Below, one piece after another: positions 52,379 to 52,680 of a stretch of 64,000 nucleotides of DNA. The stretch comes from a virus (lineage: Duplodnaviria; Caudoviricetes), in the IMG/VR virus record IMGVR_UViG_3300037424_001387, positions 539-64,538 of that record. One strand, given 5' to 3'. The notes under the pieces are model-generated. The model did no database searches and had not been told where the DNA came from. It worked only from the letters and a program-made list of their open reading frames with translations. A program made the translations under genes and the position numbers. Every line of letters begins with the position of its first letter. Within the stretch, counting starts at the first letter, position 1.

Positions 52379-52680
52379 TTTTGCACCCCAATTTCAGCCG
52401 GTCAACGCTGGCCGGTTGAGACTGTGGTACAAAGCGCAAGACGGTAGCTAATGCGGGTAAGCGACAGGCAGGCCATAGCGGGCCAGGGATGATAGAATCC
52501 TCAATATCCGCAACCTGAAAGGTAACGTTTTGTACGTGGGACGCCGTAACGCCGGGTTAGGTTCGATTCCGAAGCCTGGGCAGACTGACAAGAGGGCGGC
52601 GAGGCGCGAAAAATCCGGCGGGTTGCCGGTTCGGTGGGGAACGTGCCAAAATCAAAAGGCCCCAAACCGGGGCCTTTTTT
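52379..52680 (+). ncRNA. Candidate ~300-nt structured RNA with T-loop
   Basis: No ORF; end-to-end pairing, nested stems, GGTTCGATTCC, ends in terminator. Confidence 0.55.

Follow-up and report, generated by a model that had tools for sequence, protein, structure and literature searches.

A candidate structured 3' untranslated region in an accessory-gene cassette of a sediment phage that carries an array-less type IV-B module

INTRODUCTION

Structured 3' untranslated regions (3' UTRs) and small RNAs derived from 3' UTRs are known from bacteria and phages, among them the sib retroregulation hairpin of phage lambda and 3'-end fragments of the CpxQ and SroC type. In these systems, the transcribed strand forms a stable structure right past a stop codon, an intrinsic terminator follows, and the RNA has no promoter of its own. 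The locus described here, positions 52379-52680 of an uncultured phage sequence, downstream of the gene for a 134-aa protein (ORF134), has the same arrangement. The likeness is one of layout only and implies no homology, and, unlike a simple protective hairpin, the domain predicted at this locus is a more elaborate structure with a three-way junction.

The GOLLD (RF01998) and ROOL (RF03087) RNAs and the YrlA and YrlB RNAs also resemble this locus in their location in phages, the presence of tRNA-like genes nearby, and their multihelix junctions. GOLLD and ROOL are 500 to 800 nt long, whereas the structure supported here covers approximately 150 nt and matched none of their covariance models at any threshold. 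Unlike the case for YrlA and YrlB, no partner of the Ro or Rsr type was identified in the phage.

RESULTS

The phage and the ORF134 transcription unit

The phage is represented by a 64.5-kb IMG/VR virus contig (IMGVR_UViG_3300037424_001387) that is estimated to be 68% complete and nearly all of which is covered by the 64,000-nt stretch of DNA that was analyzed, referred to here as the window. It is a tailed phage that encodes a large terminase, a DnaB-like helicase, a primase, and several DNA methylases, and it comes from sediment, with identical contigs present in two sediment metagenome DNA runs. At positions 63903-63982, there are three to four tandem copies of a 22- to 23-nt repeat (GGGTGACATTTTGCC followed by a G-run). 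These repeats, which overlap the 5' end of a 166-aa gene (63456-63956, minus strand) immediately upstream of the gene for the DnaB-like helicase, resemble iterons and may mark an origin of replication.

Approximately 1% of the phage genome is free of ORFs, and positions 52379-52680 belong to that fraction. The stretch had been called ORF-free in a preliminary description, and this holds: it contains no ATG-started ORF on the plus strand, and its small ORFs had no PHROG match. The transcription unit around it has the following features.

51905-51933, plus strand: sigma-70-type promoter, TTGACA-17-TATACT with an extended TG, identified by consensus signals
51973-52377, plus strand: ORF134, 134 aa, with a zinc-ribbon-like motif (CxxC...CPxGH) and a GGAGG ribosome-binding site
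52615-52629, minus strand: weak terminator-like hairpin, CCGGC-AACCC-GCCGG followed by AUUUUU
52654-52680, both strands: bidirectional intrinsic terminator, GGCCCC-AAACC-GGGGCC, with an A-run on one side and a U-run on the other, common to the plus-strand unit and a convergent minus-strand unit

The promoter at 51905-51933 is the sole plus-strand promoter upstream of the stretch. A 73-nt promoter/leader cassette is present in two plus-strand copies with 81% identity (50557-50629 and 51887-51959), and these copies precede two plus-strand accessory genes, a DinI-like gene (50646) and ORF134. No Pfam or PHROG family was found for ORF134, IMG/VR held no relative of it or of a 447-aa protein, and a search of 5.8 billion proteins returned ORF134 itself as the sole match. 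Among 1.84 billion representative sequences there was one remote homolog (P0002; 46% identity, E value of 2e-13), the contig of which stops 25 nt past the gene. With this homolog and the Shine-Dalgarno site, ORF134 represents a real gene family; its predicted structure (pLDDT of 44) and an atlas search gave no useful information on it.

No terminator was found between the stop codon of ORF134 and the stretch, and the first hairpin within it (hairpin 1, below) lacks a U-tract. The stretch is therefore the 3' UTR of ORF134 as far as the terminator. Judged by these sequence signals, positions 52379-52680 are a 3' UTR rather than an independently transcribed gene, and the RNA would be made as part of the ORF134 transcript. 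An in-frame TGA lies 13 codons past the TAG stop codon, and no readthrough extension of ORF134 is predicted. The DinI-like neighbor on the same strand has its terminator approximately 10 nt past its stop codon, which makes the 300-nt tail of ORF134 unusual for the region. The hairpin at 52615-52629 is a possible backup terminator for the convergent minus-strand unit, the promoter of which lies at 52967-52939.

Predicted structure of the 5' part of the stretch

When all 302 nt were folded together, the minimum free energy (MFE) was -123.1 kcal/mol with a z score of -2.9 relative to dinucleotide shuffles, and the z score was -1.9 with the terminator removed. The 5' part contains the following predicted elements, for which P is the pair probability.

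52392-52421, plus strand: hairpin 1, with 13 bp (some of them G-U) and an ACGC loop, 15 nt past the stop codon; P of 0.98
52427-52535, plus strand: core domain, 109 nt, consisting of a 10-bp stem and a three-way junction
52427-52436/52526-52535, plus strand: 10-bp stem of the core, GUACAAAGCG/CGUUUUGUAC; P of ~0.5
Inside the 10-bp stem, plus strand: 15-nt single strand
52452-52458/52506-52512, plus strand: 7-bp stem that closes the GGCC and GGGAU/AUCCU hairpins
52471-52484, plus strand: GGCC hairpin
52486-52501, plus strand: GGGAU/AUCCU hairpin
52513-52523, plus strand: ACC/GGU hairpin; P of 0.66 to 0.82

The hairpin that had been proposed at 52394-52419 was recovered in this slightly longer form, and its z score was -4.6 to -5.2 on the plus strand versus -1.5 on the minus strand. 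For the core domain, the corresponding values were -3.4 to -3.6 and -0.3. The helices of hairpin 1 and of the junction had pair probabilities of 0.94 to 0.99. Of the two halves of the stretch, this 5' half is the only one with good support. Hairpin 1 and the core together (52390-52540) had an MFE of -57.9 kcal/mol and a z score of -3.9 on the plus strand, compared to -36.2 kcal/mol and +0.2 on the minus strand, and this segment folded in isolation gave exactly the hairpin, 10-bp stem, and multiloop of the preliminary description. The difference between strands, 21.7 kcal/mol, was equaled in 1% of the windows of this phage. Such strong strand specificity favors a feature that acts at the RNA level over one that acts at the DNA level. 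These predictions suggest that a structured RNA element of approximately 150 nt, specific to the plus strand, probably exists at this position and would fold in this way in vivo.

The same comparisons bear on the alternative that the stretch has no selected RNA function and is spacer or decayed sequence, possibly a tRNA relic, in a hypervariable accessory region, with a fold at the level of chance. In agreement with this alternative, the 302-nt stretch ranks only among the best 4% and the 151-nt 5' part only among the best 2.5% when compared with the phage's own sequence, where a number of coding windows had better scores. On the other hand, the strong plus-strand bias rests on G-U pairs, and phage genomes are compact, the other plus-strand unit nearby having a short tail.

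The 3' part, the T-loop-like sequence, and the end pairing

52536-52650, plus strand: poorly structured spacer containing the T-loop-like 11-mer (52560-52570) and the 3' strand of the end pairing (52635-52646); z score of +0.8

All of the sequence strings named in the preliminary description were present, including GCACCCCA at 52383-52390, UGGGGAACGUGC at 52635-52646, GGUUCGAUUCC at 52560-52570, and the terminator at 52658-52680. From them, a large structured noncoding RNA (ncRNA) with a tRNA-like T-loop had been proposed. In its full form, this would be an autonomous or processed trans-acting ncRNA of approximately 270 nt, closed by pairing of 52383-52390 with 52635-52646 and using a functional T-loop in a tertiary contact, as in GOLLD, Y-like RNAs, or tRNA-framed phage RNAs; we consider this improbable. 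The 11-mer does have the sequence of a canonical T-loop, closed by a G-C pair, and it lies in the ORF-free 1% of the genome, where it adjoins a tRNA-like minus-strand unit and, in the one other known copy of the locus, a tRNA gene. Nearest-neighbor models, moreover, give no credit for the tertiary stability of a T-loop. Nevertheless, the 3' part folded no better than its shuffled versions, the T stem (UUAGG/CCGAA) contains an A-G mismatch and a bulge, and the pair probabilities were 0.00 to 0.11 for this stem and 0.04 to 0.11 for the T-loop hairpin. The pattern GGTTCRANTCC occurs once in the window versus 0.44 times expected, and at least one copy was found in 37% of shuffles. For the end pairing, the strings are in place, but the GCAC/GUGC half had a pair probability of 0.24 to 0.42, no better than chance. 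Enforcing the complete proposed model gave -113.9 kcal/mol, compared to the MFE of -123.1 kcal/mol, a cost of approximately 9 kcal/mol. What stands of the large ncRNA is therefore the element of approximately 150 nt with its hairpin and junction, and not a closed 300-nt RNA with its own promoter.

The tRNA (RF00005), transfer-messenger RNA (tmRNA), and T5 RNA1/RNA2-type RNAs are the systems that the 11-mer and its neighborhood call to mind, the latter consisting of the tRNA gene in the other copy and an acceptor-like stem followed by ACCA on the minus strand of the window. Unlike a tRNA, the stretch has no acceptor, D-arm, or anticodon frame, and the T stem is mismatched. With ARAGORN at default settings, no tRNA or tmRNA gene was found in the whole window, and Rfam 15 at gathering thresholds gave no match in the whole window to any family, including GOLLD, ROOL, YrlA, YrlB, and tmRNA. 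At an E value of ≤10, positions 52379-52660 still had no Rfam match, including to the tRNA model, which scored 36.8 bits on the tRNA gene of the other copy; weak subthreshold matches all fell on the terminator. The earlier statement that no family could be assigned thus holds, and no match to a degenerate tRNA was found. Relaxed ARAGORN searches that allowed introns gave 127 matches in the window versus 112 to 126 in shuffled copies, and the tRNA-Val with an 88-nt intron at 52401-52582 (plus strand) and the tRNA-Pro on the minus strand that were among them are noise. As to a tmRNA, 65 nt separate the 11-mer from the 3' strand that was proposed to close the RNA. The reading of the plus-strand RNA as a tRNA-framed phage RNA was checked in this way and was not confirmed.

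A 22-mer comprising the T arm and its 3' flank had no match in genomes from 185,579 species, and it was therefore not copied recently from the end of a host tRNA. A tRNA-like T-loop is supported by neither thermodynamics, chance expectation, nor the one available sequence variant, and the 11-mer would be incidental or a relic. Since it sits in the small noncoding fraction of the genome beside tRNA-like neighbors, a relic and a functional T-loop are both kept as minority readings.

A single other copy of the locus

No homolog of the stretch was found by blastn among INPHARED phages and PLSDB plasmids, by searching IMG/VR with five RNA patterns, either exact or degenerate, or with two RNA patterns in JGI metagenome contigs. 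A covariance model of the core (R1) matched only the window and one 1,513-nt JGI contig, L008. This contig matches positions 51518-52702 of the window at 98.8% identity, and beyond this block the two sequences are unrelated in either direction. The shared block contains small ORFs, the promoter, ORF134, the tail, and the terminator, and its boundaries fall at a GC-rich hairpin (51529-51555) and just past the bidirectional terminator. The block is nearly identical while its flanks differ, and the tail therefore moves with ORF134 as a unit. A 232-aa protein encoded in the flank has homologs in phages that lack the entire accessory region at 44 to 54 kb, and no relatives were found for the protein encoded in the left flank of L008.

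Between the two copies there were no differences in ORF134 and seven in the stretch, at 52493-52494 (in an apical loop), 52550, 52553, 52574 (bulged), 52589, and 52635. That the 3' UTR has seven differences and ORF134 has none is evidence against the stretch as a whole being strongly constrained, as would be expected if it had no selected function, and the emptiness of all homolog searches beyond L008 points the same way. The first 157 nt (52379-52535) had only the two adjacent loop differences, while the 115-nt spacer had five, and, contrary to what decayed sequence would predict, the changes avoid the stable helices. This uneven spread is suggestive but nonsignificant (p of ~0.1 by a rough estimate), and recombination tracts may have contributed to it. 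For the trans-acting ncRNA, the copy cuts both ways: the C-to-U change at 52553 retains a G-U pair in the proposed T hairpin, but the change at 52635 breaks A52390-U52635, the terminal pair of the end pairing, and divergence is highest in the 3' part. No compensatory or double changes were present. The collection of homologs called for at the outset yielded one copy, too similar to provide covariation.

On the minus strand of L008, just past the shared terminator (1419-1513), there is a real tRNA gene (Rfam score of 36.8 bits) that is cut by the contig end and has a 32-nt segment in place of the expected 9-nt center of the anticodon arm. Window positions 52713-52784 align weakly with this gene (p of ~0.02). 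Judging by these two sequences, tRNA genes may be gained and lost at this position. The presence of the gene and the weak alignment would also fit a tRNA relic without function, although no tRNA body was recognizable in the stretch by the Rfam, ARAGORN, and 22-mer searches described above.

Relationship to the type IV-B module

An array-less type IV-B gene cluster lies on the minus strand at 44.8 to 50.2 kb. It comprises csf1-cas11-csf2-csf3-cysH-like genes, which encode a Csf2-like RAMP protein and a PAPS-reductase/CysH-like protein, and a Csx16-like gene upstream. A mini-CRISPR array has been described for type IV-B viruses of the Fuxiviridae (10.1101/2023.08.24.554615), but no CRISPR array or mini-array was found in this window. 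A csf module with protein identities of approximately 35 to 72% was present on viral contigs that were otherwise unrelated (L003/L006 of G002 and L004/L007 of G003), with the Csx16-like gene of G002 on the opposite strand; the type IV-B module therefore behaves as a mobile cassette.

The combination of Csf complex genes (44782-48141) and a missing array raises the question of whether the RNA, encoded 2 to 7 kb away, could be the guide or scaffold of the Csf complex, a link to Csf2 that had been implied earlier. In one report (PMC7937560), a type IV-B complex that had been purified from a heterologous host was assembled on RNA of non-CRISPR origin, and the natural type IV-B RNA is thus not established. 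Four viral contigs, one of them a complete genome, encode Csf2 proteins with 65 to 72% identity together with csf1, cas11, csf3, and cysH-like genes, and they have nothing else of the region in common. Neither BLAST nor covariance model R1 found a match to the stretch on any of the four, so that a partnership with Csf2 is without comparative support. In addition, the RNA moves together with ORF134 in a mosaic block of its own, and the csf genes belong to a different operon on the opposite strand. The stretch resembles CRISPR RNAs (crRNAs) and solitary-repeat RNA anti-CRISPRs in that it accompanies Cas genes without an array and contains a short motif that is found at 51858-51879 and 52500-52521. 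Unlike the repeats of crRNAs, these copies are 642 nt apart, and the stretch has no repeat-like handle. The genomes of 185,579 species contained no CRISPR-array-like spacing of the recurring motif CCGCAACCTKAAAG. Taken together, these results make a guide or scaffold role very unlikely.

The convergent RNA and a recurring octamer

The convergent unit would give rise to a promoter-driven, ORF-free RNA at 52655-52932 (minus strand) with an 8-bp acceptor-like stem, formed by GGUUGCGG (52915-52908) and CCGCAACC (52805-52798), followed by ACCA. A hairpin with 5 bp and a 7-nt loop (GCCGG-UAAAAAU-CCGGC) abuts the acceptor-like 3' strand. This arrangement gives a tRNA-like frame with extra arms; the RNA had no Rfam tRNA match at an E value of ≤10, and its fold had a z score of -1.85. 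Similarity between the plus-strand and minus-strand RNAs (the 11-mer AAAAAUCCGGC) did not exceed that found in shuffles.

In the window there are 11 copies of the octamer CCGCAACC versus 3.1 expected, and four of them fall in a 1.05-kb segment around the two RNAs (51866, 52508, and 52907 on the plus strand and 52798 on the minus strand). The motif shared by 51858-51879 and 52500-52521 is a longer, 22-nt version of it. The octamer could be a protein-binding site or a common stem sequence. Its enrichment would fit a DNA-level element, such as an origin, a site for protein binding, or an attP core that stems from the 3' end of a tRNA, and T-arm-like sequence in noncoding DNA is typical of attP sites. 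Among the ORFs tested, however, there was no integrase, the 22-mer of the T arm and 3' flank was absent from the species genomes, and the structure depends on G-U pairs and forms on one strand only. We regard a DNA-level element as highly improbable.

DISCUSSION

The stretch lies between the stop codon and the terminator of the ORF134 unit, has no internal promoter, and is more stable than expected on the transcribed strand. Our preferred reading, which we hold tentatively as plausible but unproven, is that it is the structured 3' UTR of an accessory (moron) phage transcript with a cis-acting role. Transcription would start from the promoter at 51905-51933, pass through ORF134 and the 3' UTR, and end at the terminator at 52658-52680. 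The first ~150 nt would fold into the 13-bp hairpin and the 109-nt domain with its three-way junction, and, by analogy with known systems, these structures may protect the ORF134 mRNA from 3'-to-5' decay. Alternatively, a site for RNase III or RNase E within them may set the lifetime of this mRNA, and a stable 3' fragment could possibly be left over. Downstream of them, ~115 nt would serve as a spacer under weak constraint and would also carry the complement of the possible minus-strand backup terminator.

A nonfunctional spacer or relic, although itself doubtful, is nearly as likely as the structured 3' UTR. A more far-reaching possibility, which we rate as a long shot, is that positions 52392-52535 found a new family of phage RNAs that would travel in a cassette with ORF134 and act as a ribonucleoprotein or a stable small RNA, for example, in counter-defense beside the Csx16-like and type IV-B genes.

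On present evidence, the stretch is an ordinary-looking structured 3' UTR, and the useful outcomes of this analysis are negative ones: the T-loop is unreliable, relatives give no link between the RNA and the Csf module, and the supported element is half of the proposed size. Type IV-B is a subtype without a known natural RNA partner. Should the 5' domain of the ORF134 3' UTR prove functional, a mobile phage cassette would carry an orphan structured RNA next to a type IV-B system that lacks an array.
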